Shown here: piece by piece, positions 1-45,037 of the stretch
Layout: every line of letters starts with the position of its first letter
Numbering within the stretch: position 1 is the stretch's first letter
Source of the DNA: a virus
DNA: 64,000 bases
Strand: one strand, 5' to 3'
IMG/VR virus record: IMGVR_UViG_3300025919_000136
Span: 1 to 64,000 of that record
Notes under the pieces: model-generated
Seen by the model: the letters and a program-made list of their open reading frames with translations, nothing else
What the model was told of the DNA's origin: nothing
Database searches by the model: none
Made by a program: the position numbers and the translations under genes

Positions 1-1008
1 ATGAGCGCACCAGCTATTAACATTATTGGTGGGGATCAAGCAATTGTACGCTTCCTGCCCGAATCTACGGACCTAGGAGTATACCCGTTCTCCAGCATGC
101 CCAATCCATCGACAGGGCCTGGAGGCACGCCGCAGTTAATGGGCATCACGCGGGTGCCGCAGAAAGACCGTCAGCGGAGCAACAAGAAGCTGTTCTCTGC
201 CGGTTCTCCATTCGGTATCGCCAACGTTCGTGGCGTGCGGGCGTACATGGTGAACGTAGAGATCAATATTGCGAACCTCGCAGTGTTGGCTTACTGCGTT
301 CGCAACGGATACAATAACAGCGTCCAGACTACCGGCTATAAAGGTCTGCCCGACTTATGTTTGTTCATCGACTACGTAGATACCTACGGTGAAGGCAACG
401 GCTATTCCTGGATGATCCGCTATGCCAAGTGCGATACAGGCTCCATCTCCATCCAGATGAATGGGCCGGAAATCACCGCTCAACTTCGCTTCATTGGCAT
501 CGCGGAGTATCCGAATGGTTCTCCACTTTCGATGACGATGGCTCAGTTAGATACCGCCATCCGCACCTTCGGTGAAGCCCTGACATACCACCACTTAGTG
601 TCGCTCACAGTGGGCAGCGACCTCCGCCCAATCCTGAGCGGTATCAACTATCAGTTCAACAACAACGTTCACGGATCGCAAGCTGCGCGGCCATCTTCTG
701 GGAGCGATGCTCGCCTATGGAACACGCACTACTCGCTGAAGCCTGGGAACCTGAATGCTTCCGCAGACTTGTCCTTGGATAGTGATATTCCAGCTGCGCT
801 GGCCACAAGTGCTTTCACTTCGGACGCGTGGGGCGACATCATCGCTACCATCAATAACTACGGTACGGGCGGGGCCAAGCAACAAGTAATTACCTTGACG
901 GACGCACTGCTAGGCACCGACTCCGCTGGCGGCGGAGACTCTGGCCAGGATATACCGTTCTCTGCTAACGTGACCGGCGATGCACTGGTAATTGCGAATA
1001 CGTACTAG
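1..1008 (+). CDS. Probable major tail (tube) protein
   Basis: 335-aa ORF directly upstream of a frameshifting chaperone pair and tape measure; call is from synteny. Confidence 0.6.
   Translation: MSAPAINIIGGDQAIVRFLPESTDLGVYPFSSMPNPSTGPGGTPQLMGITRVPQKDRQRSNKKLFSAGSPFGIANVRGVRAYMVNVEINIANLAVLAYCVRNGYNNSVQTTGYKGLPDLCLFIDYVDTYGEGNGYSWMIRYAKCDTGSISIQMNGPEITAQLRFIGIAEYPNGSPLSMTMAQLDTAIRTFGEALTYHHLVSLTVGSDLRPILSGINYQFNNNVHGSQAARPSSGSDARLWNTHYSLKPGNLNASADLSLDSDIPAALATSAFTSDAWGDIIATINNYGTGGAKQQVITLTDALLGTDSAGGGDSGQDIPFSANVTGDALVIANTY
689..714 (-). repeat. 28-bp dispersed element copy (intragenic)
   Basis: ggccatcttctgggagcgatgctcgc, read as RPSSGSDAR. Confidence 0.75.
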
Positions 1009-1019
1009 TAGTTTAGAAA

Positions 1020-1112
1020 GCCAATCTTCTGGGAGAGATGCTCCGCGTTCTTGGCTGTAAGCAACCTTGGTTCGCTAGCAGTGTGTGCGGAGATCTCTCC
1101 CAGAAGAGGGCC
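1020..1112. repeat. Inverted pair of the 28-bp element, GCGG ends facing (1020-1047 -, 1087-1112 +)
   Basis: gccaatcttctgggagagatgctccgcg and gcggagatctctcccagaagagggcc. Confidence 0.9.
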
Positions 1113-1141
1113 ATAAAATCCACCGAGAAAAGAGTACCAAG

Positions 1142-1699
1142 ATGACTGATGTATCCGAGAAGATGGCCGAAGCCGCAGCGAACGATCCCGAGAGCCAAGC
1201 CTACCTAGAGCGCAAGGCCCGCGAAGCTGAACAACAGCAAACCAAGTCCGTTGTCGGTGATACCAAGCGGTTGAAGTTCACTTCGGTAAACGGCAAGCAG
1301 ATGAAGTACACCACGCGCCCCTCGCAGCGCAATCAAGATACCTACGAACTTGCCATCCACCTGGAACCTGGGTTCGCCGTGGCCATCGATGCGTTGGATG
1401 ACATCCCGCTGAAGGAACGTACTCGCGAACTCCAGCGCATCCAGGCAGAAGGTCGCGACCTAGCCAAAAGCGAAGATCTTGCCGCAGCGTATACCAGGGC
1501 CGACGAACTCGCCGATGAGGAAAAGGCCCTCTACGTAGAGGTCATTCGATCGCAATGCAAAGGCTGGACCAACCTAGAACCGTTCGACATCGAGGCATTG
1601 CTGGCGGATCTGAACGTGATTGGCCGCACTACACTCGGGGACGAAATCATTGGTTCTTCCTCGACCGGTCGTCCGGGCACCGTTCCGCTAAAAAACTGA
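1142..1699 (+). CDS. Tail assembly chaperone (G-like)
   Basis: Acidic helical ORF between tail tube and tape measure, ending CTA AAA AAC TGA. Confidence 0.75.
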   Translation: MTDVSEKMAEAAANDPESQAYLERKAREAEQQQTKSVVGDTKRLKFTSVNGKQMKYTTRPSQRNQDTYELAIHLEPGFAVAIDALDDIPLKERTRELQRIQAEGRDLAKSEDLAAAYTRADELADEEKALYVEVIRSQCKGWTNLEPFDIEALLADLNVIGRTTLGDEIIGSSSTGRPGTVPLKN

Positions 1700-1950
1700 C
1701 CTACCGGGTCGTTGAACAGGGTGAACCGGCACTCCAGAAACTTGGTCGTGGAGAGACTCAAGCTGATATAGACCTACTGAAAGACTTCCTGTGGTCCTTA
1801 GGCTCACCGGAAGTCTTTTGTTTAGATGAAATGACACGAGATAACCAACTCCGTCTACGTGAACTGGCAGTTTCCTGGCATTTGAACCAAGCACATATCA
1901 TGTTCGACATCAGGAAACTTCTACTCAAGTTGCTGAATAAGCCTGTCTAA
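1690..1950 (+). CDS. -1 frameshift extension of the tail chaperone (GT-like)
   Basis: Slippery heptamer A AAA AAC at 1690-1696; the -1 frame (ORF 1555-1950) stays open to 1950. Confidence 0.75.
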   Translation, partial: KKLTYRVVEQGEPALQKLGRGETQADIDLLKDFLWSLGSPEVFCLDEMTRDNQLRLRELAVSWHLNQAHIMFDIRKLLLKLLNKPV

Positions 1951-1977
1951 CCACTACTACCGCTACCGCTACCGCTA

Positions 1978-3786
1978 ATGGCTTGGTTTAACAACGTAGC
2001 TTCCATCCGCACCAGAGCCCGCATCTCTAGCCATGGGGTGGGCGGTACCATCTCCGGCAATGCACTCGGCGGCGCTATTGCGGCACGCGCCCGCTTAGGT
2101 GCCCATCCCAGCTTGATGTTAGGCGGCAATCCAGAGACAGCCTTAGGCAGCGTAGTGCAGATGTCGGTGTTGGCGTTGGGTCTGTTCGGCACTGCACTAG
2201 GTAGCATTGTGCTCACCGTCCACAAAGTCGAACGGGCGATGAGCGAGTTCTCCAGCAATATCCAAACCCTATCCAATAACACTGGTATGGGGTACGGACA
2301 ATCTATTGGCGTACAGGGTCGCTTCGGGGCGTTCGGCATGAATGCGGCGGAGATGTTCTCTGGGACGGAGAACATGCCGATGTTCTTCCGCGCCAAGGCC
2401 CAAGGCTATGGTCTGCCAGGATATGAGGATCCCAACTTCATCTCTCGGTTAGCGGAGCGCTATCAGGCTCAGGCCCGCCAAGGTCCCACTGGGCTGCTCA
2501 TGGCGCGGACCATGTTGCAGAACCTAGGGCTGGATTCACCGGAAATGCTGAACACGGTGAACCTCTCTCCCAGAAGAATCCGCGAACAACAGCAGTTCCA
2601 GAACCGGATGCAAGGTGCGTTCGGATTGGACCCAGCTGCTATACGCCGTTGGGCGGAGGAGTTTCCGCTGCTTCAAGCCAGAGTGGGGTCATTCTTCCAA
2701 TTGCTCTGGGTGAAGATTGGTACGTTGGTCAGCCCCTATATTCTGGGAGCGCTCAACCTTGCCACCAATTTGATGGAACGGTTCGGCGGTACGATCGGTA
2801 AGGGTCTTCAGAAAGGCGCGGAGATCGGTACCTACTGGATAGGCAAGGTGCTTGGTCTGTTCTATGTGTACGGTCCGATGGCTTTCCTTGCAGTAGAGTC
2901 CGCAGCCTTGAAGATGCTCTCCGTGGTAGGTCATATTGCTATCTCCATCGCGGCGCTATATAAGAACACGATAGGAAGATTCACTCCAGGCATATTAGGG
3001 GATATGGCCTCCAAAGTACCTCAGGCTCTAGGCGACGCTTCTTTAGGTGCGCAGGCAGTAACAGATTGGGTAACTGGACACGTGGCCGCACCTATGGAAG
3101 ACCACTTCATAGTTGACAGCGCCCACGGTATCGGAGCCTCGGCTACCACTCGGCGAAACACTCCCGCTGCAGTGAAGCATCGTGCTGCGAATACGGTGCA
3201 CCACCATATCAAGGCTAGCCACATGGGCTTGGGCGGCTGGATTGATGATACCTTAAACCCGTTCATAGCTCACGGTATAGATAACCTGAAGTTCTTCCTC
3301 CGTCCAATGCCAGGCCATCACTATGGACTAGATGATCTGAAGGAAGGTGCACACTACGTTGGCGGTGGTATGGGTAGCCATACACAATACGTTCAGAAGC
3401 GTTCCGCCGACATCCAACGCCAGCACCAAGCCATCCAAGCATGGAAGGCTAGCGGCGCTAACCCACGCAATCGACCGGTCACGCCCGACATTCCGGCGGA
3501 GCAAGGCGGCTATCAGGGGCCAGAAGATAGCAACTTCATCACTGCCTTCACCGACCCGAAGATCTCCGAAATCGATAAGCAAATCGCCCAAATCAACACC
3601 GGTCAACGCCAGCAGGAGTGGGACAAAATATGGGGCGATATGTTGAAAGAGATTAAGGGTCTTCGCCAAGACATTGACGAGAAATCTGGGGCCGTTGGCT
3701 TCCCTGAGTTCCGTGCGCTGATGAAACTACTTGGCCGAGAGATGGGTTCGGACATTCTGCGAACCTCGTATAAAGGCGGTGGGTAG
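1978..3786 (+). CDS. Tape measure protein
   Basis: 602 aa, Ala/Gly-rich with hydrophobic helices, follows the chaperone pair. Confidence 0.7.
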   Translation: MAWFNNVASIRTRARISSHGVGGTISGNALGGAIAARARLGAHPSLMLGGNPETALGSVVQMSVLALGLFGTALGSIVLTVHKVERAMSEFSSNIQTLSNNTGMGYGQSIGVQGRFGAFGMNAAEMFSGTENMPMFFRAKAQGYGLPGYEDPNFISRLAERYQAQARQGPTGLLMARTMLQNLGLDSPEMLNTVNLSPRRIREQQQFQNRMQGAFGLDPAAIRRWAEEFPLLQARVGSFFQLLWVKIGTLVSPYILGALNLATNLMERFGGTIGKGLQKGAEIGTYWIGKVLGLFYVYGPMAFLAVESAALKMLSVVGHIAISIAALYKNTIGRFTPGILGDMASKVPQALGDASLGAQAVTDWVTGHVAAPMEDHFIVDSAHGIGASATTRRNTPAAVKHRAANTVHHHIKASHMGLGGWIDDTLNPFIAHGIDNLKFFLRPMPGHHYGLDDLKEGAHYVGGGMGSHTQYVQKRSADIQRQHQAIQAWKASGANPRNRPVTPDIPAEQGGYQGPEDSNFITAFTDPKISEIDKQIAQINTGQRQQEWDKIWGDMLKEIKGLRQDIDEKSGAVGFPEFRALMKLLGREMGSDILRTSYKGGG

Positions 3787-3804
3787 CCCTGGCGGGCAGT
3801 CAGT

Positions 3805-5685
3805 ATGGGAAGCTTCGATAAGCCCATCATCGGTGGCAAGCAATACTATCGCGTGACGGCGAATGCGCTGCCAGCCACGGACAGCAAGTGGGCGGGGCTA
3901 TATGCACCAACCATTACCAACATGAACGATGGGGATTGGTTCCTCTTCCCTTCAGGCGGCGAAAATAACTACGACGGTTTCTATACACACTTCGACACCT
4001 TCACGATAGACCTGCTATCGATCCCCACTACGATTAGTACCTTCGTGCCCAACGTCCACAACCCTGCAGGTTATGTGGTGACAGTTGGGCCAGCCACCTT
4101 CAGTATTGCTATCGATGCGACTGGATTCAACTTACCACTACTGGGATTGCTCTACTTCAAGTACGGTGGAATTCTTTACAGAGCCTACGTACAATTCTAC
4201 AAGTTCTTCTTCGGACGCGGAGTTGACTTCCACTTCGTAGTACTGTCTGGTAGTGCGATGGACCGTAGGATCACGATCGATTTCGTGACAGACCCGGATA
4301 GTGTACACCAAGCCACCACGGTAGACTGGCAGCTGATTGGCACGGACGGCAGCGTCACACACTTAGGTAACAATAAGCTGCTGGATGTGAACCTGACACC
4401 CTCTCAGTCTGGAGTGTATAACCACTATACCATATCGTCTGGTTTTGGATTCCCGGTCGCCCCGTACATCCAAGCAGTATGTAATAATGCCTTGAATGAA
4501 GGCCCTGGACAACTTCTCCCACCTACGTTCGGCCTCAACTACTTCGTTCCCGTTGCGAAGCTGAAGGTGGATAATGGCACAAACCTAGGTTCCGGCAACT
4601 GGAGCGTGCCGGACACACTCGCTATCCTGGACGCGTCTGATTCGTTCGACCCGGACGGGACCATCGTGAACTATCACTGGATGATTGGTTCTCCCGTCCA
4701 GAAGACGTACGACACCACAAATCCCGTTCTTCCGTTGGACTTCGATGAAGGCTTCAAATCACTAATCCAAGTGCAGGTGACCGACAACGAAGGCTTCCAA
4801 GCTACCAGCCCGTTTATCTCACTCCAGGTGGGTATTCGTGCGCGACTACTATACAACAAGCACCTGCGCGCCCTACATTACTTCTACGCGGATGCCTCGA
4901 TGAACGTGCTATGCGCGAGCAGCCTGAATCTGACCAGCTTCGATATAGCTTCGGCTGTCAAGACCTATTTTCTAGGACACGGAGTTAGCTCCTTGGCAGC
5001 CTTCATGATAGGCTCCATGCCTGTCGTGGCATACTCGACTTCGGACTATGGGATTCGCTTGTGCTACTCGAAGGACCACGGAGCCTCGTTCACGAATGTT
5101 GCCCTCTTCCCCAGCGCTATCCTTCGCGGAGGACTTTACAACGAGCATACCCGCTCCCTGTTCATGCTTGGGGTATCGGTGACTGGTGGGCCTATTCGCC
5201 GCTTCTGCGCTCGGTACAACGGTATGAACTGGACTACTGATGATATCACTGATATCCCATCGCTGCCCTCGACAGGCGTGGCGAATTGGCATCTTTTCTG
5301 GAGAGGATCCACGCTCACAGTTGTAGTGGAGCATGACGCTGTAGTTGAAATGTACGCTTCCACCGATGATGGCTATACCTTCACCCTACAGCACTCCATC
5401 GAGGGTGGCTATAGCCCGATGAGCGCCAGGTGGGATCAGCACACACTATCTGCCTTCATCCTGTCCAGAAAAACGGGCGCTGAAGTTTACCGCATCGTGG
5501 CCCGTACTAATGGCGCTGGCATATGGGACCACGATGATATAGCCACGGTAGACGGCCTAGTGGCCGACTCTACGGGACTTGCCCACGAGCTAGGCCAAGG
5601 GTCCGTCTATGCGATCTCACGCGCTGGCGCTGTGCTGAACGCAGTTATTAGTACCGACGAAGCATATAGCTATAGTGGTATCTAA
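3805..5685 (+). CDS. Tail protein with PKD domain and Asp-box (BNR) repeats
   Basis: DASDSFDPDGTIVNYHW...VTDNEG (PKD); SKDHGASF, STDDGYTF, STDEAYSY (Asp-boxes). Confidence 0.7.
   Translation: MGSFDKPIIGGKQYYRVTANALPATDSKWAGLYAPTITNMNDGDWFLFPSGGENNYDGFYTHFDTFTIDLLSIPTTISTFVPNVHNPAGYVVTVGPATFSIAIDATGFNLPLLGLLYFKYGGILYRAYVQFYKFFFGRGVDFHFVVLSGSAMDRRITIDFVTDPDSVHQATTVDWQLIGTDGSVTHLGNNKLLDVNLTPSQSGVYNHYTISSGFGFPVAPYIQAVCNNALNEGPGQLLPPTFGLNYFVPVAKLKVDNGTNLGSGNWSVPDTLAILDASDSFDPDGTIVNYHWMIGSPVQKTYDTTNPVLPLDFDEGFKSLIQVQVTDNEGFQATSPFISLQVGIRARLLYNKHLRALHYFYADASMNVLCASSLNLTSFDIASAVKTYFLGHGVSSLAAFMIGSMPVVAYSTSDYGIRLCYSKDHGASFTNVALFPSAILRGGLYNEHTRSLFMLGVSVTGGPIRRFCARYNGMNWTTDDITDIPSLPSTGVANWHLFWRGSTLTVVVEHDAVVEMYASTDDGYTFTLQHSIEGGYSPMSARWDQHTLSAFILSRKTGAEVYRIVARTNGAGIWDHDDIATVDGLVADSTGLAHELGQGSVYAISRAGAVLNAVISTDEAYSYSGI
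5288..5314 (-). repeat. Degenerate 28-bp element copy (intragenic)
   Basis: ggcatcttttctggagaggatccacgc. Confidence 0.5.
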
Positions 5686-5688
5686 ATA

Positions 5689-8379
5689 ATGCCCTACAAC
5701 CAAGCTACCGAAAACCGAATACGCGTCTACAATGCGAACTCCATCCCGAACTTGGACCGCAACTCCTACGCACATGCGGTGGACCTCACCAGCGTAATGG
5801 GCCGCAACTTCGGACAGAGCGCGGACAACCAGAACGTAGGCATGGGTTTGGCCGGCATTGGCAACACGCCCAATACCTGGTACGGACAGCCACAGTTCAA
5901 CGCGAATGAACTTTCATGGTTCCGACTGGGTCCGGATGGCACCTTCTACCAGGGTATGGATTCGCTCGGCCATACCAACGAACTTGGGCTCCAAGGCTTC
6001 ATGCTGGTGCGGCGGGAGTTACCGTACAACTGCCAGATCATCCCGGCTAAGGCGGGGGATGCGCTCCCGATAGGTAGCCTGGGCTTCAATGCGATGCATT
6101 GGATCCCTACGACCGGACTTACCCTACCAAATGGACAGAGCGCATGGAAAACGGTGGGGTCTTCTACTTCTCCGCTGGCTACGCGTATTGCGCACCTAGT
6201 GCAAGCGCCCAACCAACGTGTAATTGCTACATCGGCGGAGGCTGCTCCAGCGGACCTAAGTTTTATGGTCCCGATCGACTTCATGGGGATTGCAGAGGGA
6301 CACTTAGTCCCGCCCTACCTTCGCTATACATGGGCGAACGGGAAGTATGCCATTACCTTCATGCACAATCACTATCCGGTGATTGAGCGCTGGACCAATG
6401 ACCCGGCCTGGAACAACGGCGTACCATCGTTGGCTCCTTGGCGAACGCTCTCCGCAACGGCCAAGATTCGTATGGACGGGCCGAAGGCCCACAGCCATAT
6501 GGTGCTCATCGTACGGCAAGTTGGCGGTATGCTGGTCGTAGACTTGGACTTCGGCGACTTCTGCTACCGCGAATGGATTGCGGACATCGTGACACCTACG
6601 CTCTCTGCGGACAGCCCATGGGGCTCTCCCGGCAGCCAGGATATCCGCATCAGGGACATCTCGTGGGACAGTGGAGTGTACTCCGTGGAACTTTACGGAG
6701 CGCTAGCTACGGTTGGCTACGCCGCTATCGTGTACCGAGATGTACTCGTCCCAGGACACGAGGCAACCGGACTGTCAGGGACCTTCGAACAGTATATAGC
6801 TACTACCTATGCCCCACCTTCTGGGAGCGCTACGGGTGGCGGCTACGCGGCTGGTTGGATTCGCAAGAACACCAACGTAGATGTTCAAAGCACCTGGACC
6901 ACGGCCAACAAAGGCGGACTGCTCCACACTCGTGTCACGCTGAAGGCCGACGATCCGGAATATGTAGGCGCGGCTCCAGGAGTGCATAGCCCTGTCGTGT
7001 ACAGATACGTGACTAGCGCCACCAATCTACTCACGCCGGGAGGCCCTCCATACCTAGAGCTCCAGCAGTTCCTGAAGGGGTCGGGCAGCATCCAGTCCGG
7101 TGAAGAGGATGCCGTAATGGCGGAGGCCGACTTCACCCTCGACCGTGATCGGATGCAGGACACGCCTGGATATAGCGGTTGGCAAAGCTACTTGCAAGAT
7201 CGACATCTGGTTACGTGGGAGCAGCGCTGGACGGACTCAGCCCAATCGGTAGGCCCGTTCACGGAACTCTTCCGTGGTTACATTGCATATACTGACAACA
7301 CCACTGGATCCGAACCATTTGAGTTTGATGCCACAGTCCACATGCAGGACATGCTCATGTGGCTGAGCGAAGGCTACGCCGTTGTAGATGAACGCTACTT
7401 GCCGTTGGATTTCCTAGTGATGCAATCCGGCGAGCCGCTCTACGGTACGGCTGGATTCCGCTATATGATTCAAATGGTCTTCGGGCAGGACGAAGCGGAC
7501 AAAGTCAACGGTGGGCCGGACAATGACCTACGCTGGTTCTCTGCAGGACACGCAGCCCTCATCGACGGCATCAACGACCAGAACGGTATCGTCCCTTCGC
7601 TGACCACGCTCCAACTTCAACCGGCTACGCGCAGCGGATTCAAGTACCCACCGCCACGCGGAGATAGCGTACTCTCATGGGCAAACACCATCCGCGAACA
7701 AGATCGGGCGGTTATCATCTATGGCATCCCTCCGGGCCAGACCACGCGGTGCTTCATGTATGGGCGGCTGGACCTTATCGAGGCGGAGCGGGCTGCCCAA
7801 CCCCTGATCGAACTATTCGACACGAACTATACCACCGCTTCTATAGATGGGCTGCTAGGCGAGATGTCTACGCATACCTTGCCGGGCACATCCTACAACG
7901 TAATCGAAATCATCTGGGGTGGTGGGGTGAAGGCCAGTCAGTTGGGTATCCTACCCCCAGCCTTCGTAGTATCGGCCCGGTTACCAGACACCGACCCATA
8001 CAACTCCCCAGCTTTGACCGGCGAGCGTAAGCTAATCATGCAGCTGGAGTGGGTCACGGATCGACGCATGGCGCAGGAAATTGCGGACTACACGGTGAGC
8101 CTGTTCGCCAATACCCGCCACGAGACGATTCAGTTAAACGCCCTACGCGGCGTGCAAGGGACGGACTTTGGCAGGCTCTGCGCCCCACGGTTGAACGGTA
8201 CCTACTCGGATACTACGATCAACCTGAACGCATATGCGAGTGGAAGTAGCCCGCAACCTGACAGCGAGTTGCTAATCATGCACTACCGACACGACTTCGC
8301 CTTCGATGGCGACAGTCCCGACCGCGCGTTCACAACTAATCTTACGTGTCGCTTCAAAACAAGAGTAGCGGGAGCATAA
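5689..8379 (+). CDS. Large tail tip / baseplate hub-like protein
   Basis: 896-aa beta-rich ORF in the tail operon; function from position only. Confidence 0.55.
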   Translation: MPYNQATENRIRVYNANSIPNLDRNSYAHAVDLTSVMGRNFGQSADNQNVGMGLAGIGNTPNTWYGQPQFNANELSWFRLGPDGTFYQGMDSLGHTNELGLQGFMLVRRELPYNCQIIPAKAGDALPIGSLGFNAMHWIPTTGLTLPNGQSAWKTVGSSTSPLATRIAHLVQAPNQRVIATSAEAAPADLSFMVPIDFMGIAEGHLVPPYLRYTWANGKYAITFMHNHYPVIERWTNDPAWNNGVPSLAPWRTLSATAKIRMDGPKAHSHMVLIVRQVGGMLVVDLDFGDFCYREWIADIVTPTLSADSPWGSPGSQDIRIRDISWDSGVYSVELYGALATVGYAAIVYRDVLVPGHEATGLSGTFEQYIATTYAPPSGSATGGGYAAGWIRKNTNVDVQSTWTTANKGGLLHTRVTLKADDPEYVGAAPGVHSPVVYRYVTSATNLLTPGGPPYLELQQFLKGSGSIQSGEEDAVMAEADFTLDRDRMQDTPGYSGWQSYLQDRHLVTWEQRWTDSAQSVGPFTELFRGYIAYTDNTTGSEPFEFDATVHMQDMLMWLSEGYAVVDERYLPLDFLVMQSGEPLYGTAGFRYMIQMVFGQDEADKVNGGPDNDLRWFSAGHAALIDGINDQNGIVPSLTTLQLQPATRSGFKYPPPRGDSVLSWANTIREQDRAVIIYGIPPGQTTRCFMYGRLDLIEAERAAQPLIELFDTNYTTASIDGLLGEMSTHTLPGTSYNVIEIIWGGGVKASQLGILPPAFVVSARLPDTDPYNSPALTGERKLIMQLEWVTDRRMAQEIADYTVSLFANTRHETIQLNALRGVQGTDFGRLCAPRLNGTYSDTTINLNAYASGSSPQPDSELLIMHYRHDFAFDGDSPDRAFTTNLTCRFKTRVAGA

Positions 8380-8412
8380 TTCACCGATGTATATGTTTGT
8401 ACGAGGTATATA

Positions 8413-8634
8413 ATGGCTGAAGTCACTCCTCATCAATGGCAAGAACGACTACGCAACATGGCCGTGCGTAAGTCCGTAGATCAGTCCATCAAACTTGGAC
8501 CGCTGCGAGAAGCCACCCTAGCTGGTTCAACTCCGCCGACAGTAGGCTCCAGCGGCATGTTCCAACAAGACGGCAGCTTCGTAAGCTGGATGCGTTGCGG
8601 AGATCTGCCTGGGTCTGCTAAGCCGCTTATATGA
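8413..8634 (+). CDS. Small tail-associated protein
   Basis: 73 aa, GAGG ribosome-binding site upstream. Confidence 0.55.
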   Translation: MAEVTPHQWQERLRNMAVRKSVDQSIKLGPLREATLAGSTPPTVGSSGMFQQDGSFVSWMRCGDLPGSAKPLI

Positions 8635-8648
8635 ATACTAATTGCTAA

Positions 8649-8699
8649 CGCGAAGGACTCTCTCCAGAAGATGGCCGCTCTTCTGGGACAGGTCTCCGC
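8649..8699. repeat. Inverted doublet of the 28-bp element sharing GGCC
   Basis: cgcgaaggactctctccagaagatGGCCgctcttctgggacaggtctccgc, intergenic. Confidence 0.9.
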
Positions 8700-8721
8700 C
8701 TAACTCGTATAGGATACCACC

Positions 8722-11115: not shown

Positions 11116-11119
11116 GAAT

Positions 11120-11737
11120 ATGTCTAATATACTCGTGTCTGGTGCAGGCTCTGCAGACTACAACGGCACTTACGCGCCTTCTGGTACTCACGGAGGCGTG
11201 CCCATGTATGCGCTGGACGGAACACATGTCCTATACTGCAATGCAGGCACATGGTACCTGGCACCAGATGTGTTCACCGTTTCAGTTGCCTACCACTCGA
11301 CAGTTATATCAACTCCGAACGTGTCGTTAACTGGATGGGTTACTGATTTTGGTACGGCTCCTGTACCAATACTTACAGGGGACATTACCCCAGCTGCTCC
11401 AACCCTATTCCCATTCCACACTCCGGGACCACAACCATCAATCACCATTGACACTCCAGCACAGCCATCTGGTGCGGATACATACTGCGATATCCAATAC
11501 TCCGACGATGGCGGCAGTACCTGGCACGACTGGGACACAGCAAACGTTCCGTGGTCCGGGTCGCGGACCTATAACTGGCCTTCTCCGGTTCCGCTGGTGC
11601 CAGGCGCGACCTATCAGTTTCGTTGTGTAGCCTACACCACCTACCACAGTGCTGGTTCTACTCCTGGAACTGCAGCCTCTTGTACCCTTCTCGGACCCAT
11701 TCAAACCGGTGGCGCAGGATTCTTCTTCGGCCCCTAA
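11120..11737 (+). CDS. Tail-associated protein with FN3-like C-terminus
   Basis: IQYSDDGGSTW...LVPGATYQFRCVA motif. Confidence 0.55.
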   Translation: MSNILVSGAGSADYNGTYAPSGTHGGVPMYALDGTHVLYCNAGTWYLAPDVFTVSVAYHSTVISTPNVSLTGWVTDFGTAPVPILTGDITPAAPTLFPFHTPGPQPSITIDTPAQPSGADTYCDIQYSDDGGSTWHDWDTANVPWSGSRTYNWPSPVPLVPGATYQFRCVAYTTYHSAGSTPGTAASCTLLGPIQTGGAGFFFGP

Positions 11738-11764
11738 CTGTTCGCTATATACCAATTACTAAGT

Positions 11765-11818
11765 GCGGAGCACTCTCTCCAGAAAAACGGCCCCATCTTC
11801 TGGACAGGATGCTCCGCG
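11765..11818. repeat. Inverted doublet of the 28-bp element at the convergent operon junction
   Basis: gcggagcactctctccagaaaaacGGCCccatcttctggacaggatgctccgcg. Confidence 0.9.
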
Positions 11819-12011
11819 GTCCGTAAATAGTAGTAGTATGGGTGTATAGCGGGTGGTGTTGGTTGCTCCGTTCGGCTGTAGCCCGCTTGGGCCGACGGCT
11901 GGCGGCTTGCGCAAAACCGGCGAGCCCACTGGGGCGGTTGGGCGGAAACTCGGCGGTTTTGGAAGGCGAAGCGACACGGAGAACAGAAGCGAAAGTAGTC
12001 TTCGGGCCATT

Positions 12012-12221
12012 CTACGGCCCGCTGAGGTAGGGGCGGTTAGCAGGTTCCAATAAACGCAGATCTTCCTCGGGGAAGCGAACCTTCCACTCCAGGTTGTATC
12101 CGGCTAGGAGGACCGTTAGTCCGCTATGCTCCCCTAGTAGGGCTATGACTTCTCCGACATCTCCGTGGACCTCAGAGTGATCCAGCACCTGCACCATATC
12201 TCCAACTTCGAATTTCTTCAT
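12012..12221 (-). CDS. Small SH3/KOW-like protein
   Basis: KFEVGDMVQV...GDVGEVI pattern; ATGA overlap with upstream gene. Confidence 0.55.
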   Translation of the reverse strand: MKKFEVGDMVQVLDHSEVHGDVGEVIALLGEHSGLTVLLAGYNLEWKVRFPEEDLRLLEPANRPYLSGP

Positions 12222-14341
12222 TCAGCCCTCCGAACCTTCACGCGCCTAATACTAGGCTTAGTTGGTGGGGTGACCTTCTTCAGCCCAGCCGCTTCCCACA
12301 GATTTGCCACATGATCCGTGGCACCATACAAGTAACGCGGAGCGCCCCGCCCAAACGGATTCTCCGTTCGTGTCTTGGTGACGGCTCCCAGCAAGTAGAG
12401 ATCCTCTAGTTGGTCGCGCAGAGTCGTCAATGGGATATCCAACTTCTCGCACAGTGGTTCAATGAAGAAGTCTCCATCGTTACAAAAAGCTGCCACAGCT
12501 TCTAGGTTGAATCCTACGCAAGTATCCAGTGCTACCCGGCTCACTATGGCGTAGTTGTCCTCGTCCAGTTTGGGCACGTGGGATAGGAGCGACAGTCCGT
12601 AGGTCAACTTGGTAAGCTGCTTGCCAATGCGGGTACCCATCTCGTGCTGGGGACGGTACTGCAACTTCTCTTGCCCTCCCGACCACGCTCGGTTCACGTT
12701 AGCGCGAAGGATGCCGACCAGCGAAGCTAAAGCGACGATCTTCGTGATGAGCCACTCAGGCATCGTTGGCAGAGAGTATGGATCGATCTTGACTTCAACG
12801 AACCGCTGGACGATTTCGTGCAGTCCTTCGCGCATGCCAATCTCGTGACCTACGTTGCCAATGGCCGTGCGAATGGCCGCGTCCGCGTTGGGATTGTGTC
12901 CAACTCCCTTGACCAAGTGGAACATCAAGAACCGCTCGCCTAGGGCTGCGGTTCGCTCACCGAACACGGCATGAGTGACGCCGCTGATCATGTTGAATTG
13001 AACTTCATAGTTGCGCACCAATCCGTTCCCATAGTGCTTGGTGACAGAACCGTCGTAGGCACCGCGTAGGGTGCCGTAGATTTCGTCACGTTGGGTGGAG
13101 GGGAGGTTCAGGATCTCGGTGAAGTCCTTCAGTACGAAGGTCTTCTTGTTCAGCTTAGGTAGCAAGGATGGATCACCACCACCCCGCGTGGCAAATCCCG
13201 AAACCAAACTATGTGCCGTTAAGGTACTAGCGAAGTAGCACGACGGGCAACCACTAAGGGGCATCAGGAGTTCCGTTTTCGCGGTTCCTGGAGGGGATAC
13301 GATATGCATCCAGAGCGGATCACCACCAATCTGGTTCGAGAGTACCACCGCGAAGATTAGCTTGAGCCCCGTCACCATATCGTCCGACATCTTCAAGTGC
13401 TGACGGAACACAGCCAGGACTTCCTCGAAGGTTGGACGATCCGTGGAGTCTGGAGGCGGAAGCGATTCTATGTGGGCAGCTTGCTCCGCCTGTTCGTTTA
13501 TGTCGGCTTCGGAAACGTAGGTGGTTACTAGGGACTGCAATTCTTCGTAAGTGCCACCAGCAACCACGAAGTCCCGGACATCAAACTTGTTAGGTAGTGA
13601 CTCAGGCCACTTGAGGTGCAGAAACTGAGTGGCATGTCCGGCCAACTTGCCCGACAATCTATCAGTGCCTTTTACTCCACCCAAGTCATGGTCGTAGCAG
13701 CAGATGACGGTCCGCCCCGACACATACTCCGACCAGCGCTCCTTCCATACTCCCGCTCCAGGGACTCCTATCACGCAGCCAACTTCGTTGGCTGTCTCCA
13801 GAAGATGGCGCAACGCGATGGCATCCCATTCGCCCTCGCAAATATATACTGGTTCGCAGGATTTTTCTAGATCCAGCAGGGCAGATAGGTTCCATATAGA
13901 GAGTTCCAGTCCCCAAATGGATTCTAGCTTGAAATCTTCACCGCACCTGCGGAAGTTAACAATCTTGCCGTGGCCATTGTAGATTGGGATGTACCAATGG
14001 ACCCCATCGTGGACGACTCCGGTTTGTTGTAGGACTTGAGGCGGTAGGTGGCGGCTAGCAGCCAGTTCGGCTAGCCATTCGGGTATTGGAGTGGTAATGG
14101 GTAGGTGGTACATTTTGTACCACTCCGCTAAGAATGTATAGGTATTACCGTTCAACCCACAGGAGCCAGCCTTGCAATCCCACTGGCCCGTTGCGGCGTT
14201 GATGTACAGCTTCTTGCGTCCTCCACAAAAGAGGCAGTCGCCGTAGTATTCGTCTCCCGCATGATTGTCCGCGTGATATTCGAAGCCTAATGCGATGAAC
14301 GGTCTAAGTTTGGGAGGAACTTCGGATGAGCTCCTCGCCAT
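12218..14341 (-). CDS. Primase-helicase fusion: Zn finger + TOPRIM + MCM-like AAA+ ATPase
   Basis: CLFC...CKAGSC; EGEWDA, YDHDLGG (TOPRIM); IVSPPGTAKTELL, ALGERF, GTRIGKQL (MCM-like); start coupled by TAATG overlap. Confidence 0.8.
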   Translation of the reverse strand: MARSSSEVPPKLRPFIALGFEYHADNHAGDEYYGDCLFCGGRKKLYINAATGQWDCKAGSCGLNGNTYTFLAEWYKMYHLPITTPIPEWLAELAASRHLPPQVLQQTGVVHDGVHWYIPIYNGHGKIVNFRRCGEDFKLESIWGLELSIWNLSALLDLEKSCEPVYICEGEWDAIALRHLLETANEVGCVIGVPGAGVWKERWSEYVSGRTVICCYDHDLGGVKGTDRLSGKLAGHATQFLHLKWPESLPNKFDVRDFVVAGGTYEELQSLVTTYVSEADINEQAEQAAHIESLPPPDSTDRPTFEEVLAVFRQHLKMSDDMVTGLKLIFAVVLSNQIGGDPLWMHIVSPPGTAKTELLMPLSGCPSCYFASTLTAHSLVSGFATRGGGDPSLLPKLNKKTFVLKDFTEILNLPSTQRDEIYGTLRGAYDGSVTKHYGNGLVRNYEVQFNMISGVTHAVFGERTAALGERFLMFHLVKGVGHNPNADAAIRTAIGNVGHEIGMREGLHEIVQRFVEVKIDPYSLPTMPEWLITKIVALASLVGILRANVNRAWSGGQEKLQYRPQHEMGTRIGKQLTKLTYGLSLLSHVPKLDEDNYAIVSRVALDTCVGFNLEAVAAFCNDGDFFIEPLCEKLDIPLTTLRDQLEDLYLLGAVTKTRTENPFGRGAPRYLYGATDHVANLWEAAGLKKVTPPTKPSIRRVKVRRAE

Positions 14342-15324
14342 TAGATAGTTGCTCCCTCCAGAAGTAAGCCACACTCGCGCAACTTATCCAGCAGATAGCT
14401 TCCCATGCAGTCGTCCACTAACTTCATGGTGGTGCCGAGTTCGTCGTAGGAGGAAATCCACGAAGGCTTGAGTGGTTCAGGGAAGTACTGCTTCGCCCCT
14501 TCAATCCAGCCTTCGCGGATCCACCGGCCAAGTTGCTCAGCAGTGGGACGGTCCCTCATAGCTAGTTGGGCAAGGTCCGGCAGGGTTAGCCCGGTGTTCT
14601 TCTGGACCTGAACCACACGATCATCCCAGAGGGATTGCATGCGGAAGTCCTTTACGTTCGTCACCGGCAATTCCAAGCCAATGTGCTTCTCGCACCACTT
14701 CTCCACTACGTCTCGAGCCTTGGAAGCATCCCTCGTGGGGTCGTCGCGGACAGATACCCGACTAGTAAAGATGCGCACGTCGTGGCCGTTGTAGAGCCAT
14801 TCGCGGACACGATCTACCATAAGCGGGATCGGTTCGCCAATGTGGTTGATCCCCTTCCAAGCGTCATACTCGGCCAAGGTACCGTCCAAGTCCACTCCAA
14901 TCCAACCATGACGCTTAACCATCTCTCCCAGAAAAACGGACACCCCACTTCCACCGAATGTGGAAGCGTGGGCGGCGTTGGTTGGGTGTGTAGTGTCAGG
15001 AGTACCTGCCATCCACAAATAAATGTCCTTGGCCCCTTCATACATGCGAAGGTAGCTACAAAACTTCGCTAGCTCTAGGCTAGGGCGGACTATATTTTCT
15101 GGCTGGAGGAAGTATTCCTGTCTGAGCGCGAACATCTTCGCGGTGCCTGCGGGCGTCCACATCAACATCTGGTGCATGCGATCCGAACGGACCTTGCGAA
15201 TGGCGAATAGGCAGCCATCATACTGCCCAACGCCACTGGTAATTTGGAAGCGGTGATCGGCTTCCTCGAGTTGGATGCCTTTTGGCTGTGGGGCTGGTTG
15301 CGGGACTTCAGTTGTCTGACACAT
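14341..15324 (-). CDS. Multi-domain protein with HAD phosphatase (PNK 3'-phosphatase-like)
   Basis: WIGVDLDGTLA, IFTSR, K...LWDDR HAD motifs. Confidence 0.7.
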   Translation of the reverse strand: MCQTTEVPQPAPQPKGIQLEEADHRFQITSGVGQYDGCLFAIRKVRSDRMHQMLMWTPAGTAKMFALRQEYFLQPENIVRPSLELAKFCSYLRMYEGAKDIYLWMAGTPDTTHPTNAAHASTFGGSGVSVFLGEMVKRHGWIGVDLDGTLAEYDAWKGINHIGEPIPLMVDRVREWLYNGHDVRIFTSRVSVRDDPTRDASKARDVVEKWCEKHIGLELPVTNVKDFRMQSLWDDRVVQVQKNTGLTLPDLAQLAMRDRPTAEQLGRWIREGWIEGAKQYFPEPLKPSWISSYDELGTTMKLVDDCMGSYLLDKLRECGLLLEGATI

Positions 15325-15339
15325 AAATATAGACTCCTT

Positions 15340-15576
15340 CTACGGCTTTGAACTGCTTTTCTGCTTCATCCATCTACGCTTCTGTCCGGTGCTCCGCTCG
15401 TTGCGACGGGCACGGAATTCTACATTTCCATCTACTATCCGGAACTCAAACTCGTGGACCAGCCCACAGTCGCAACACGAAATCTTGTGAACTGGAGCGT
15501 CGGGTCTAATCCAATAGGTCCAGTTCCCGTCGCCTTTCTCCCCGTCAACGTGCTGTATGTATGGCTTAGACATCAA
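15340..15576 (-). CDS. Small Cys/His phage protein
   Basis: CCDCGLVH; overlaps polymerase stop. Confidence 0.6.
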   Translation of the reverse strand: MMSKPYIQHVDGEKGDGNWTYWIRPDAPVHKISCCDCGLVHEFEFRIVDGNVEFRARRNERSTGQKRRWMKQKSSSKP

Positions 15577-17719
15577 TCGCTACCTTCTCATCCCAGGACG
15601 ACACACACCGTTTGAACTCAACCGGCATGGGCACATCAATACGGCCTTCGTTGTCGGACATGATGTCAATCATGCCGCGAACCAGCCACTTGTATGCGTC
15701 CCGTTGGTGTACCTCGAAGATGATTTCGTCATGCACGGGCATGACAACGTAGGCCCTAGCCCCAACCTCCTTGAAGTACTTCTCGCAGCGGATCATGGAA
15801 TCCTTCACCATGCACGCTGCAGTGGATTGGATCATGTAGTTGACGGCCTTGTAGGGCTTGTCTTCCTCGATGTGAACCTTGCGGCCATACGGGTTCACGA
15901 TATACCCATCCCGCGACGCTTGCTTGATGAGCATATCCATATACTGCCGCATCTCTGGGAGCGCTCCGCTCAGTTCGCGCAGGAACTGGGTGGCTTCCTG
16001 GAGCGAACAGTAGAGCAGTTCCGTAATGGTGCTAGGGCCACCACCATAGATCATGGCAAACATGATAACTTTGGCCCGCCCACGGCTGTTACTCTTGCCG
16101 ACGGACTTCTCTGCCTTCACGATATCATATCCGTGTCGTGCCAGAAAATGGTCCGCCAACTCCTGGGAGCGTTGGGAGTAGAAGCCATAGGTCATAGCTG
16201 CTTTGGAGTTCCACTCATACTCCTGCCAGAGAGCGGCCACTTCTGGGGATGATGGTTCGTTGCGGCCCAAGTCCAGCGCGTATGAAGCGGCCTTCAATGC
16301 AGAGGGATTGTTGCGTCCACCCCATGCCTTATTCGCGCAAGCGGAGTTGGGGTCCCTACCAGCGGATATCTCTTGCAGTAGGAAGGGGATTTGGCCTATT
16401 GCGGCAAATAAGCGAAGTTCTTGTTGCGAATAGTCTCCGGTGTACCAGATGTGATTTGCACGAGGACCAAATGGAATGCGGGGGCGATAAGACCCTATAT
16501 TTGCATGGGCGGTGCGAGGGTTACCAACCTGCATCATGTTAGGGCTATTTGCGCTTAATCTAAATGTCGTGGTTCCGCACTGGTTCACCGAAGGGTGGAC
16601 ACACATACCTCCTGGTGCCAACGGATCCGGCAGCATGAGTTCGAGGTACTTATCGAAGAACAGTTTAATGGCTTGCTCCGCAGCCCGGTAGCCTACAAGC
16701 TCCAACACAAACGGCTCCGTCATCAGTTCGCGGAGCGCATTCTTGTCGGTGGAGTATTCGCCGCTATCCGACGTCCGCGTGGTCGTCAGGCCAAGTCCGC
16801 CTTGTTCGGGCGCATTGTATAACAAGCGGCGAAGTTGGAGCGGGGAGTTGGGGTTGAATTCCAACGAAGTGGCGTCCGCTCCAGCAACGTATGCATCGGG
16901 ATTGTGTGGCCGTAGACCTTTCTCCGCAATCATGCCGAGCATAGACTGGTGGTGCTTGTTCAGCGCAGTAAGTGCCTTATCGTGCTCTTCCTTGACCTTA
17001 GTGGGGTCCAGACGCATACCTCGACGTTCCAACTTCACCATGATCGGCCACAGTTCTCGCTCTGCTTCGTACCCGGCACTAAGGACTTCGTCGTTGTCGA
17101 ACTTCTCCTGGTAGTACAGATGCAGCCCCATGGTGCGGAAGGTATCCATGCGACAGTACTTCTCGCAGCCTTCGGAATCCAGATCGAAACACTTAGGGAG
17201 CCAATAGTCTTGCTCCGCCACTTCGCCGAGTTTGATGAGTGGGCGGTTAGCTTTGGCCGCTACTCGGTTCAACGACTGGCAATGCCGTCGCCACTTCTTG
17301 ACTTCCTCGCGGAGCGTGGATTCGTCATCAATGGGGATGCCGAGATACTTACGGGCAAGTGCCTTCAAGCCGTAGGTATACTCCAGGTTATATGCCACGC
17401 GGGCCTCGATGTGGGTATCGTGGATTGGCCCGGCCATGGGGATACCCAGCGTCTCCAGCATGAAGCAGTCGAACTTGGCGTTATGGAAGATTTTGGGTAG
17501 GTCCTCGCGCGAACAGAGTTCGCGCAGCCACTCAATATCCTCCTCCACCACTTCCGGTTCCCTAGTATATGGATCCACGCCCCACTCGACGTAGGCCGTG
17601 TTGCCATCCTGATCACACAGTCCCACAGCGAACGGTTTGTCGCCATGCCAATGCATAATTCCGGTTGTCTCACAGTCTATAGCGACGGCCTCGGTTGGGT
17701 TGAACTTACCTATGTCCAT
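15566..17719 (-). CDS. Family A DNA polymerase with 3'-5' exonuclease
   Basis: DCETTG, HNAKFD, YCRMD (Exo I-III); DYSQQELR, RGRAKVIMFAMIYG, VHDE (motifs A-C). Confidence 0.95.
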   Translation of the reverse strand: MDIGKFNPTEAVAIDCETTGIMHWHGDKPFAVGLCDQDGNTAYVEWGVDPYTREPEVVEEDIEWLRELCSREDLPKIFHNAKFDCFMLETLGIPMAGPIHDTHIEARVAYNLEYTYGLKALARKYLGIPIDDESTLREEVKKWRRHCQSLNRVAAKANRPLIKLGEVAEQDYWLPKCFDLDSEGCEKYCRMDTFRTMGLHLYYQEKFDNDEVLSAGYEAERELWPIMVKLERRGMRLDPTKVKEEHDKALTALNKHHQSMLGMIAEKGLRPHNPDAYVAGADATSLEFNPNSPLQLRRLLYNAPEQGGLGLTTTRTSDSGEYSTDKNALRELMTEPFVLELVGYRAAEQAIKLFFDKYLELMLPDPLAPGGMCVHPSVNQCGTTTFRLSANSPNMMQVGNPRTAHANIGSYRPRIPFGPRANHIWYTGDYSQQELRLFAAIGQIPFLLQEISAGRDPNSACANKAWGGRNNPSALKAASYALDLGRNEPSSPEVAALWQEYEWNSKAAMTYGFYSQRSQELADHFLARHGYDIVKAEKSVGKSNSRGRAKVIMFAMIYGGGPSTITELLYCSLQEATQFLRELSGALPEMRQYMDMLIKQASRDGYIVNPYGRKVHIEEDKPYKAVNYMIQSTAACMVKDSMIRCEKYFKEVGARAYVVMPVHDEIIFEVHQRDAYKWLVRGMIDIMSDNEGRIDVPMPVEFKRCVSSWDEKVAIDV

Positions 17720-17742
17720 GGTTTACCAATGCCATTGCGGAG

Positions 17743-17793
17743 CGCGGAGATCTCTGCCAGAATACGGCCCCATCTTCTGGACAGAGTCTCTGC
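17743..17793. repeat. Inverted doublet of the 28-bp element upstream of the polymerase
   Basis: cgcggagatctctgccagaatacGGCCccatcttctggacagagtctctgc. Confidence 0.9.
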
Positions 17794-35172: not shown

Positions 35173-35199
35173 GCGGAGACTCCTTCCAGAAGATAGGCC
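35173..35199 (+). repeat. 28-bp element copy (intergenic)
   Basis: gcggagactccttccagaagataggcc. Confidence 0.85.
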
Positions 35200-44932: not shown

Positions 44933-44948
44933 CGCGCCTCCACCAGAA

Positions 44949-45009: not shown

Positions 45010-45037
45010 ATACCACCATGAGTATAGATTTGATTTT

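Follow-up and report, generated by a model that had tools for sequence, protein, structure and literature searches.

Conserved head-to-head pairs of a polar 28-nt element in the genome of an uncultured phage, possibly a signal for its replication-recombination machinery

What is the role of imperfect palindromes of ~50 nt that stand between the genes of a phage, each assembled from two inverted copies of an asymmetric repeat? The question is raised by the first 18 kb of IMG/VR virus record IMGVR_UViG_3300025919_000136 (G000), an 88,424-nt record of an uncultured phage from a rhizosphere metagenome, of which bases 1-64000 formed the whole stretch of DNA that was initially analyzed (the window, 64,000 nt). 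The original prediction, made from the letters of the window, listed three such doublets (8649-8699, 11765-11818, and 17743-17793) and a fourth pair that faces the other way (1020/1087), and proposed that they mark either the zone where two polarities of the repeat meet, in the manner of a replication fork trap, or REPIN-like hairpins and bidirectional terminators. Here, the doublets were confirmed as real and conserved head-to-head pairs of one repeat family, named element E below. The likeliest of the readings that we weighed, on the basis of association and layout, is a replichore-like one, in which E would be a strand-specific signal at the DNA level, read by the replication-recombination machinery of the phage, and the pairs would offer this signal on both strands; we put it forward tentatively and with less than even confidence.

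E is a 28-nt, asymmetric, and hence polar, element of the form GCGGAG-N3-5-YCYSYCC-AGAAGATGGGCC, i.e., a GCGGAG block, three to five variable bases, a pyrimidine run, and then CCAGAAGATGGGCC. The 13-mer CCAGAAGATGGCC was found 27 times with ≤ 2 mismatches, against 2.15 matches expected (0/100 shuffles reached this number), and a stricter two-block pattern gave 27 copies vs. 0-1 in each of 20 shuffles. With an nhmmer profile, 40 copies were detected at E < 0.05 in the record (29 inside the window), and those with E < 0.001 (n = 32 in the record) are referred to as strong copies. When 65 copies from two genomes were aligned, CCAGA was invariant, together with the spacer A and the post-core A, a third A was present in 64/65 copies, and the spacing of the blocks varied by 1-2 nt (8-10 nt between GCGGAG and CCAGA); RNAalifold returned no structure for these 65 single copies. 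An invariant core with variable spacing and without a fold is the signature of recognition by a protein and not of a folded RNA. Hairpins inside the single E (GGAG/CTCC, a boxB-like CCA-GARRA-UGG, or a stem of Y-run and R-run) were rejected, as their 5' side is invariant while the 3' side varies without covariation, and so were readings as sigma-70 -10/-35, sigma-54, or MotA-box-like sites, where the spacing is wrong and the would-be T(-7) occurs in only 41/65 copies. No Rfam match was obtained at E, and the family was also absent from the cultured phages of the database searched. In a pattern scan of metagenomes, E was recovered, beyond the relative G001 described below, only in short fragments of one or two close relatives, other single matches being due to chance.

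In a fused doublet, two inverted E copies have a central GGCC in common, which results in an imperfect palindrome of ~50 nt. The paired copies of the record are given below, one feature per line.

8650..8676, + strand, first half of doublet D1, a GCGAAG variant (E-value 3e-4), 45 nt before the ATG of a 797-aa gene (8722)
8673..8699, - strand, second half of D1 (E-value 2e-6), with the common GGCC at 8673-8676
11765..11792, + strand, first half of doublet D2 (E-value 0.004), at the convergence point of the + and - gene arms
11790..11817, - strand, second half of D2 (E-value 8e-7)
17744..17770, + strand, first half of doublet D3 (E-value 6e-5), antisense to the surrounding - operon
17766..17793, - strand, second half of D3, a GCAGAG variant (E-value 0.004), directly after the stop of gene 17794-18156 and 46 nt before the ATG of the polymerase gene polA (17719)
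83795-83845, fused doublet D5, outside the window, within a 962-aa open reading frame (ORF)
1019..1046, - strand, left half of a back-to-back pair (E-value 6e-9), which points into the 3' end of + gene 1-1008
1087..1113, + strand, right half of the same pair, 28 nt before a likely ATG at 1142 and separated from the left half by a 40-nt spacer
16226..16254, degenerate, core-only head-to-head pair CCAGAGAGCGGCCACTTCTGG within the polA coding sequence, kept in G001
88173, degenerate core-only pair

The three doublets of the window, all intergenic and fused on a common GGCC, as well as the fourth, back-to-back pair of opposite facing, were in this way verified from the sequence. D1 separates co-directional genes, D3 is located inside an operon, and D2 separates convergent arms, the + arm ending at 11737 and the - arm at 12012, with the convergent gene junction near 11.8 kb; the claim that this junction has a doublet and no classical terminator was also right, as a terminator scan gave only a weak site inside D2. 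That no fused doublets occur beyond 18 kb held true for full pairs in the window; for the whole record it did not, because of D5, and a core-only pair occurs at 88173 as well. The interval from 22 to 83 kb contained neither a fused nor a core-only pair. With head-to-head pairs defined by a distance of 15-30 nt between the CCAGA anchors, 4 were observed vs. 0.066 expected (0/20,000 random placements), and the excess of fused pairs was still present (P = 0.0015) with the copies confined to the 12,235 nt of intergenic DNA. The CCAGA anchors are 20-22 nt apart in 4/4 fused pairs, i.e., in a fixed register. Contigs of three DNA sequencing runs showed neither joints nor breaks at the doublets, and no RNA run was listed among those that contain the phage.

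The pattern scan of viral contigs provided one relative, G001 (85,035 nt, ~80% identical), that is collinear with G000 at 68-91% identity across 60.7 kb of alignments. A same-strand counterpart in G001, at the mapped place or inside the same unaligned gap, was present for 37/40 copies of G000; one of the remaining three copies lies in a region outside the G001 record and two are in a gene that is absent from G001. All four fused pairs, as well as the back-to-back pair, have retained their two halves (e.g., 1019..1046 corresponds to 22198 of G001, 1087..1113 to 22272, and the + half of D2 to 33105 in an unaligned gap). At D5, the similarity to G001 breaks off ~50 nt beyond the doublet.

Could the palindromes be selected as hairpins, either in RNA or in extruded DNA, that would serve as bidirectional terminators, as RNase III or stability sites, or as REPIN-like mobile palindromes? 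Each doublet can form an imperfect stem of 20-25 bp with an energy between -21 and -35 kcal/mol (z -1.6 to -4.9), values of -51 to -55 kcal/mol were obtained for the back-to-back pair, and the loops have a constant geometry. D2 stands at the very place where a stop is required between the convergent arms, and it is the only terminator-like site there. They also resemble REP, BIME, and REPIN sequences in being short repeats of gene junctions, which often form inverted pairs able to fold into hairpins. However, when G000 and G001 were compared base for base in the two doublets of equal length (D1 and D5; two genomes, so that the test for covariation has low power), the stems showed 7 broken pairs, 1 pair that a change on one side had preserved, and 0 compensatory changes, and the - half of D5 has lost its GCGGAG block in G001. 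The two halves of a doublet drift independently, each within the E consensus; as the stems do not co-evolve, the doublets are, as far as two genomes tell, two sites and not one hairpin. In addition, no doublet is followed by a U-tract or T-run on either strand (inspection of the sequence of D1-D3), D5 interrupts no gene border but lies within a long ORF, and D3 precedes polA inside an operon, which leaves only D2 at a place where a bidirectional stop is needed, and the arms of different doublets differ in their spacers and are therefore not recent copies of each other. REP and REPIN units are imperfect palindromes that carry a conserved tetranucleotide at the 5' end, whereas a single E is no palindrome, its invariant block CCAGA is not a stem, its places are conserved in the ~80%-identical G001, and the arms of a pair are not near-identical; the density of bacterial REP sequences is far below that of E (~1 per 2-3 kb), and no RAYT or HUH Y1 transposase was present among the Pfam and PHROG matches of the incomplete G000 record. 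A selected role as hairpin, terminator, or REPIN, the second alternative of the original prediction, is not supported in general, and we consider it improbable; palindromy alone is no ground for annotating doublets of this type as terminators or REPINs.

The orientation of the single copies is easier to follow along the gene layout. Genes were called by codon usage (108 genes) and annotated through PHROG (98 ORFs) and Pfam scans (subsets of 25 and 16 ORFs), which delimited three gene domains in G000, i.e., a late + arm, a replication - arm, and an early - block, with a non-coding centre between the two - domains.

60.8 kb to the record end, then 1 to 11.7 kb, + strand, the + arm with structural/late genes (terminase at 72.7 kb, portal at 76.4 kb, major capsid at 85.2 kb, tail-like proteins at 1-11 kb)
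45 kb down to 12 kb, - strand, the - arm with replication, recombination, and nucleotide genes (SNF2 helicase, PD-(D/E)XK nuclease, Sak4-type AAA_24, DUF669, UDG-like protein, ThyX-like protein)
15.6-17.7 kb, - strand, family-A polymerase (polA), ATG at 17719
12.2-14.4 kb, - arm, primase with zinc motif, Toprim, and P-loop, T7 gp4-like
46-60 kb, - strand, block of small genes, which we take to be early genes, with a repeated TATAAT-type promoter-like element
44933..45878, non-coding centre of 946 nt, with the polarity switch, an AT-rich stretch, and AAAACGG boxes
45323-45373 / 45661-45711, 51-nt inverted repeats of the centre
45040..45064, - strand, start of the - series, ~105 nt ahead of the gene that opens the - arm, retained in G001 and in another relative, L066
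45797..45824, + strand, start of the + series; the 13-bp hairpin next to it reads, on the - strand, as a hairpin and T-run terminator ending the early genes

The strong copies are on the - strand from 45.05 down to 23 kb, and a run of 14 strong copies on the + strand extends across 45.8-83.8 kb. In the stretch 45.8-58.7 kb, 8/8 copies (5 strong and 3 weak) are + and run opposite to the - strand genes, the only exceptions on the gene side being the GIY-YIG homing-endonuclease ORF at 50076-50816 and two doubtful small calls, so that the orientation of E there is independent of the local gene. The copies are antisense to 15 kb of early genes and several abut the stop codons of - genes (0-4 nt); such independence of the gene strand was restricted to 46-60 kb, both in G000 and in G001. 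With the best partition into two domains, 26/32 copies were concordant in G000 (P = 0.07) and 29/33 in G001 (P = 0.003; permutation). Both arms contain counter-polar copies, the + arm at 83.83, 75.0 (weak), 0.70, 1.03, and 8.69 kb, the - arm at 11.78, 17.76, 21.7, and 35.2 kb. The opposed E series meet at 11.8 kb. Single counter-polar copies include the following.

689..717, - strand, within + gene 1-1008 (E-value 8e-5), with a weak counterpart in G001 (E = 0.59)
21710..21737, + strand, at the 3' end of - gene 21687-22394, with a degenerate inverted partner in the G001 counterpart
35173..35199, + strand, whose reverse complement is the GGAAGGAG ribosome-binding site of the - gene starting at 35167

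The copies are also spaced more evenly than by chance in the + series between 45.8 and 86.9 kb (n = 20, mean gap 2,165 nt, coefficient of variation (CV) 0.44, P = 0.0002); in the other E series the evenness is weaker (P 0.02-0.36).

Where the pairs lie on the genome depends on its closure. The first bases of the record are ATG and the last ones a stop codon, IMG/VR classifies it as a trimmed 'provirus', and its CheckV completeness is 71%. The homologues of the G000 end and the G000 start are separated by ~6.0 kb in the collinear G001 (six phage-like ORFs of 125-422 aa, with no RNA polymerase match among them), and a contig from the likely source run extends 3,602 nt upstream of window position 1. 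The record falls short of the whole genome, which is probably nearer to 94 kb, and the 'provirus' label is probably an artefact of trimming; no sign of lysogeny was found in G000. With the record treated as a circle, the five full pairs occupy 0.25 of it (P = 0.02), or 0.30 once the missing 6 kb are included (P = 0.04), a modestly significant confinement to the far third of the genome. Their mean position is offset by +5.8 to +7.6 kb from the antipode of 45.4 kb and, on the opposite side, by 4.9-6.1 kb from the convergent gene junction, which is equally near, and the data fit a gathering around either of the two alike. The proposed fork-trap-like zone where polarities meet is compatible with the data and is modestly supported by this confinement and by the uniform + orientation from 45.8 to 83.8 kb; it is weakened by the lack of a replichore skew, by the position of the pairs, which is as near to the convergent junction as to the antipode, by the incomplete record, and by relatives transcribed in one direction, in which no significant two-domain polarity was seen.

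In order to find what E travels with, its core (YYCCAGARRA) was counted against dinucleotide shuffles in viral contigs that were collected through polA homologues (31-39% polA identity, 35-62% GC); closer polA homologues (P0002-P0006) have 48-56% identity. The core was enriched from several-fold to ~20-fold in most, not all, of the polA-relative loci, the richest of which have 6-12 sites (L096 12 vs. 0.6, L104 10 vs. 0.7, and L105 10 vs. 0.8 in shuffles), and no enrichment was seen in farther polA relatives. Three full genomes contained 35, 30, and 12 core sites, against 2, 6, and 0 for the reversed pattern. The + copies of the AT-rich G002 have a longer consensus, GCAGA/GGAAA, few bases, and TTCTCTTCCAGAGAA, which parallels both E blocks. 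The evenness of spacing recurs for core sites in G000, G001, and G002 (CV 0.64-0.75, P 0.002-0.013), while G003 and G004 were not significant. An E-type site is present between the Sak4 and DUF669 genes in G000, G002, G003, and G004 (on the other strand in G004). Head-to-head pairs of the core were not in excess in G002-G004 (6, 3, and 5 vs. 3.0, 2.0, and 6.8 expected). By tblastn, the genes that G000 has in common with the three complete relatives are those for replication-recombination and nucleotide metabolism, plus a weak terminase match. The outcome was the same when ORFs were clustered across 17 sources (four whole records plus 13 polA-centred loci), since the families present in ≥ 6 sources including G000 were only replication-recombination and nucleotide genes together with their shadow ORFs. 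The core motif persists across phages that have only replication-recombination genes in common, and the 28-nt form and the direction switch belong to one lineage.

Three logics fit a directional repeat that switches: a signal for replication or recombination tied to the fork, a sense signal for transcription, and a polar block to RNA polymerase. The replication reading was given the edge because the replication module is the only detected companion of the core, because sites are kept within genes on both strands, because their spacing is even and near the size of Okazaki fragments, because the main structural genes have no copy in front, and because the orientation disregards the early genes. 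Among the in-gene sense copies of E in G000, 8/12 are in one frame, encoding a Gly/Ala/Ser/Pro/Glu/Asp linker, and E appears to be kept as a DNA signal at the expense of the protein. In this scheme, bidirectional forks would depart from the non-coding centre at 45.4 kb, the presumed origin. As E points away from the centre on both sides, it would lie 5'->3' on the lagging-strand template of the departing forks, which is the strand that a gp4-like primase-helicase would travel, and for this reason we prefer E as a priming or re-loading site for the primase-helicase, comparable to a single-strand-initiation site; within the same frame, E might instead be a Chi-like stop signal for a nuclease-helicase. 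Candidate readers encoded by the phage would be the T7 gp4-like primase (12218-14374; zinc motif, Toprim, P-loop), the family-A polymerase, the SNF2 helicase (35673-37295), the PD-(D/E)XK nuclease (26672-28072), the Sak4-type annealase, and a putative RuvC-like protein (33761-34252), which is conserved and has 163 aa; a 360-aa early protein was set aside, having given weak matches only. In the far third (83.8 -> 21.7 kb), forks may arrive from either side, and both orientations as well as the fused pairs occur there. Each doublet would then be two independent E copies, head to head and in a fixed register, that present the signal on both strands at one spot, with the palindromic GGCC packing them into the least space. 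The centre as origin, the bidirectional forks, the identity of the reader, and the effect of its binding are all part of what we infer.

Dispersed directional repeats of phages known to us so far are promoters, repressor sites, or nick sites, and the closest parallels of the replication reading come from bacteria and plasmids. Polar motifs of bacterial chromosomes include Chi and KOPS (5-8 nt) and Ter (23 nt, with the Tus protein); their orientation switches at the origin and the terminus, sites occur within genes too, and the series oppose each other at the terminus. To our knowledge, no polar motif of this type has been described in a tailed phage. E resembles them in its switch of direction, its in-gene sites, and its opposed series, and differs in that no skew accompanies it and no Tus-, RecBCD-, or FtsK-like reader was identified (a Tus-like contrahelicase family was absent among the Pfam and PHROG matches). 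The ssiA and ssiB sites of plasmid RSF1010 and primosome assembly sites are strand-specific priming signals of tens of nt that depend on a hairpin and occur once, at the origin. The two RSF1010 sites lie on opposite strands as an inverted pair and offer a model for the role of a doublet, while E differs in having ~40 copies and no conserved fold. A fuller picture, which we regard as a serious and still doubtful possibility, is that of a tailed phage with a chromosome of bacterial style, in which E would be repeated every ~2 kb away from an internal origin, fused pairs would stand where forks meet, the phage primase-helicase or nuclease-helicase would be the reader, and the core would have moved with the replication module across a clade of 35-62% GC. 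If the replication reading is true, E would give tailed phages their first example of a replichore-like cis architecture, and a defined oligonucleotide together with a short list of proteins would provide a handle on fork priming and restart.

Several observations weigh against the replication reading. No compositional trace of replichores exists in G000, as the skews track only gene strand (side coefficient 0.001 for GC and 0.016 for AT skew vs. 0.106 for gene strand). The core motif showed no significant two-domain polarity (G002 P = 0.94, G003 P = 0.80, G004 P = 0.09, and G000 P = 0.28), so the polarity is a property of the long E in one lineage, where it largely matches gene direction in two of the three domains. 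The counter-polar copy at 35.2 kb is just 10 kb from the centre. Moreover, close relatives do not share the sequence of the upstream half of the centre, and what is conserved best there resembles a sigma-70 promoter with an operator. We also know of no 28-nt polar replication signal in tailed phages, and known phage primases read 3-5 nt. Finally, the intergenic enrichment of E and its copies close to start codons look like those of gene-expression signals, a pattern that a DNA signal squeezed into short spacers would also produce.

Such features also speak for the view that E is a middle/late promoter, or another sense signal, of two divergent domains that depart from a hub at 45.4-45.5 kb, where the copies of the early region would serve late transcripts antisense to the early genes and the doublets would be face-to-face promoters making antisense RNAs close to the convergence of the arms. 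We judge it unlikely. A promoter is the usual meaning of a conserved, directional, intergenic phage repeat of 25-30 nt (T7-, N4-, SPO1-, and T4-type), and 17/32 strong copies fall between genes, vs. an expectation of 13.8%. Upstream of middle and late genes, no words recur other than those derived from E (no second late-promoter motif was retained, CACTTGG words being scattered within genes), and the hub has conserved promoter-like hexamers in both directions with a TTGACC-type promoter-like core. With +1 at the G of GAAGAT, E would span -17 to +11, the size of a T7-type promoter, and four copies lie 6-9 nt upstream of a start codon, three of them with a Shine-Dalgarno-like AGAGGA variant. Like T7-class, T4 late, and SPO1 promoters and the T4-type promoter-stem-loop cassettes, E is a repeated directional motif that flanks variable cassettes: the gene at 74346-75983 (1.8 kb, present in G000 only) carries its own copy near the 5' end, and a three-gene block that varies between G000 and G001 lies between two direct copies. 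Antisense RNAs are known in other phages (PMC5563952). Against a promoter stand the remaining 15/32 strong copies, which are inside ORFs including the portal gene, the 8/8 antisense copies of the early region, and the relatives with almost one-strand gene calls, where ~2/3 of the sites are in genes and 31/50 in-gene sites are sense and 19/50 antisense. The major capsid, portal, and terminase genes have no copy ≤ 150 nt upstream, the -4 to -1 stretch would be CCCA and not AT-rich, and overlapping face-to-face promoters at four places lack an obvious use. Furthermore, no cognate polymerase or sigma factor was found: six-frame searches gave no match to PF00940, PF04542, or PF08281 (the PF00940 search was run without a positive control), no DxDGD motif occurred, PHROG and Pfam scans returned no RNA polymerase or sigma factor, and no conserved regulator is common to the relatives that keep the core.

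A polar block is similarly compatible with much of the layout. E would be a bipartite asymmetric site for a DNA-binding protein of the phage, which would act as a monomer and arrest RNA polymerase that arrives from one side only, the sense copies silencing the middle/late arms as long as the protein is present, the reversed copies of the early region sparing the early genes, and the reverse copies and doublets around 11.8 kb stopping read-through from the opposite arm. Such an explanation, which we find more unlikely than likely by a wide measure, accounts neatly for the reversed early copies and for the reverse copies that flank the convergence point, with D2 exactly on it. It also agrees with two blocks around a variable spacer (8-10 nt), with dispersal in short intergenic spaces, often 0-36 nt downstream of a stop codon, with even spacing, and with an orientation that follows transcription in the two arms. 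More than twenty 13-mer sites are described for the repressor of mycobacteriophage L5, the block being abolished when a site is reversed, and this distribution matches that of E (PMC9283540). The stoperators of cluster A mycobacteriophages resemble E in being asymmetric, present at > 20 per genome, located in short intergenic spaces, tied to direction, and composed of two half-blocks that are read by one protein (PMC9283540). They differ in length (13 vs. 28 nt, E being twice as long) and in having a known repressor and a temperate lifestyle, neither of which was found here: G000 scans detected no repressor, helix-turn-helix, or integrase family and no sign of lysogeny (the 'provirus' label being best explained by trimming), and no conserved DNA-binding protein is common to the core-bearing relatives, in which the core is kept where only replication genes are common. 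E, in turn, occurs many times within genes, is reversed across 15 kb of early genes, and forms fused head-to-head pairs, and doublets before polA and in the 962-aa ORF would block essential genes of the phage itself. Should E turn out to be a promoter or a stoperator, a large uncultured clade would have a conserved transcription factor that has so far gone unrecognised. We think it equally improbable as the hairpin that E marks strand-specific nicks in virion DNA (T5-, phiKMV-, or tf/LUZ24-type), with doublets nicked on both strands. The strand specificity of E, its density (~one strong copy per 2.8 kb, which fits phage tf), its occurrence within genes as well as between them, and its link to a module that holds a PD-(D/E)XK nuclease would suit this. 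The nick sites of T5, phiKMV/LUZ19, and tf/LUZ24 are described as strand-specific, several to 14 per genome, independent of gene direction, and of unknown function, with consensus lengths of 9-19 nt; phage tf has 14 nick sites in 46 kb, all on one strand regardless of two convergent gene sets (PMC3517423). The consensuses given there (TACT/RTGMC, CGACxxxxxCCTA/CTCCGG, and R/GCGCRGG) are unlike E, and the nicks described are all on one strand, whereas E switches strand at the centre and forms inverted pairs (PMC3517423). The packaged genome would also be weakened if both of its strands were nicked, 20-45 nt from each other, at four or five places.

Relatives of the phage itself are distant apart from G001. 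Its capsid and polA proteins have at most 23-33% identity to those of cultured phages, so no close cultured phage exists among these, and megablast and tblastn searches of a phage database with the region, an 896-aa protein, and the polA of a relative gave no match; literature on the clade was not found. Bacterial genomes contained no polA relative of > ~30% identity in the best segment, bar four partial matches (75-130 residues, 31-33%), and such weak matches therefore give no clue to the host.

Other features were noted along the record. Within the best-conserved part of the centre (45490-45620), TTGACC occurs together with a 14-nt palindrome and a -10-like hexamer, and a conserved ORF of 14 codons and a hairpin come after them; this part is retained in G001 and in L066 (74% identical). 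Next to D3, the stretch 17794-22394 encodes ThyX-like, HD, and nucleoside-deoxyribosyltransferase-like proteins and a small neighbour (18890-19312), which occur in 6-10 of the 17 clustered sources; they are a candidate base-modification set and would represent a clade-wide feature and not a one-off. The gene at 74346-75983, outside the window and absent from G001, is a 545-aa ORF with a C-terminal ADP-ribosyltransferase domain. The variable three-gene block is found at 47201-48582 between direct E copies, and G001 has one copy and no genes at the corresponding place (63980), a difference that looks like a deletion or an insertion through recombination between E copies. A second repeat family on the - strand ends in GTTATAAT, a -10-like hexamer that is preceded by AAAAGGCCCCCAAAC. 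Several of its copies have a palindrome with 14-bp arms upstream and none of them a TTGACA-like -35, and the family probably marks early promoters. Its copies are the following.

40269-40326, 46939-47013, 48456-48530, 48692-48766, 49927-49990, 52368-52425
53628-53702, 57136-57175, 57798-57837, 58150-58224, 58562-58587, 60694-60733

Mobile and self-processing sequences are present as well. Just upstream of the terminase and outside the window, a 1056-aa ORF (69280-72450) contains, at residues 629-1003, an intein (Pfam Intein_splicing, 3e-40) with an HNH endonuclease, within an extein that has no family match. Free-standing homing endonucleases of the early region comprise the GIY-YIG gene at 50076-50816 (+ strand, opposite to its neighbours) and an HNH gene at 57223-57768 (- strand). 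In the spacer between two early - strand genes, positions 51933-51987 (- strand) match the Rfam model of the type-P5 twister self-cleaving ribozyme over its full length, with 50.6 bits against a gathering threshold of 37.6.

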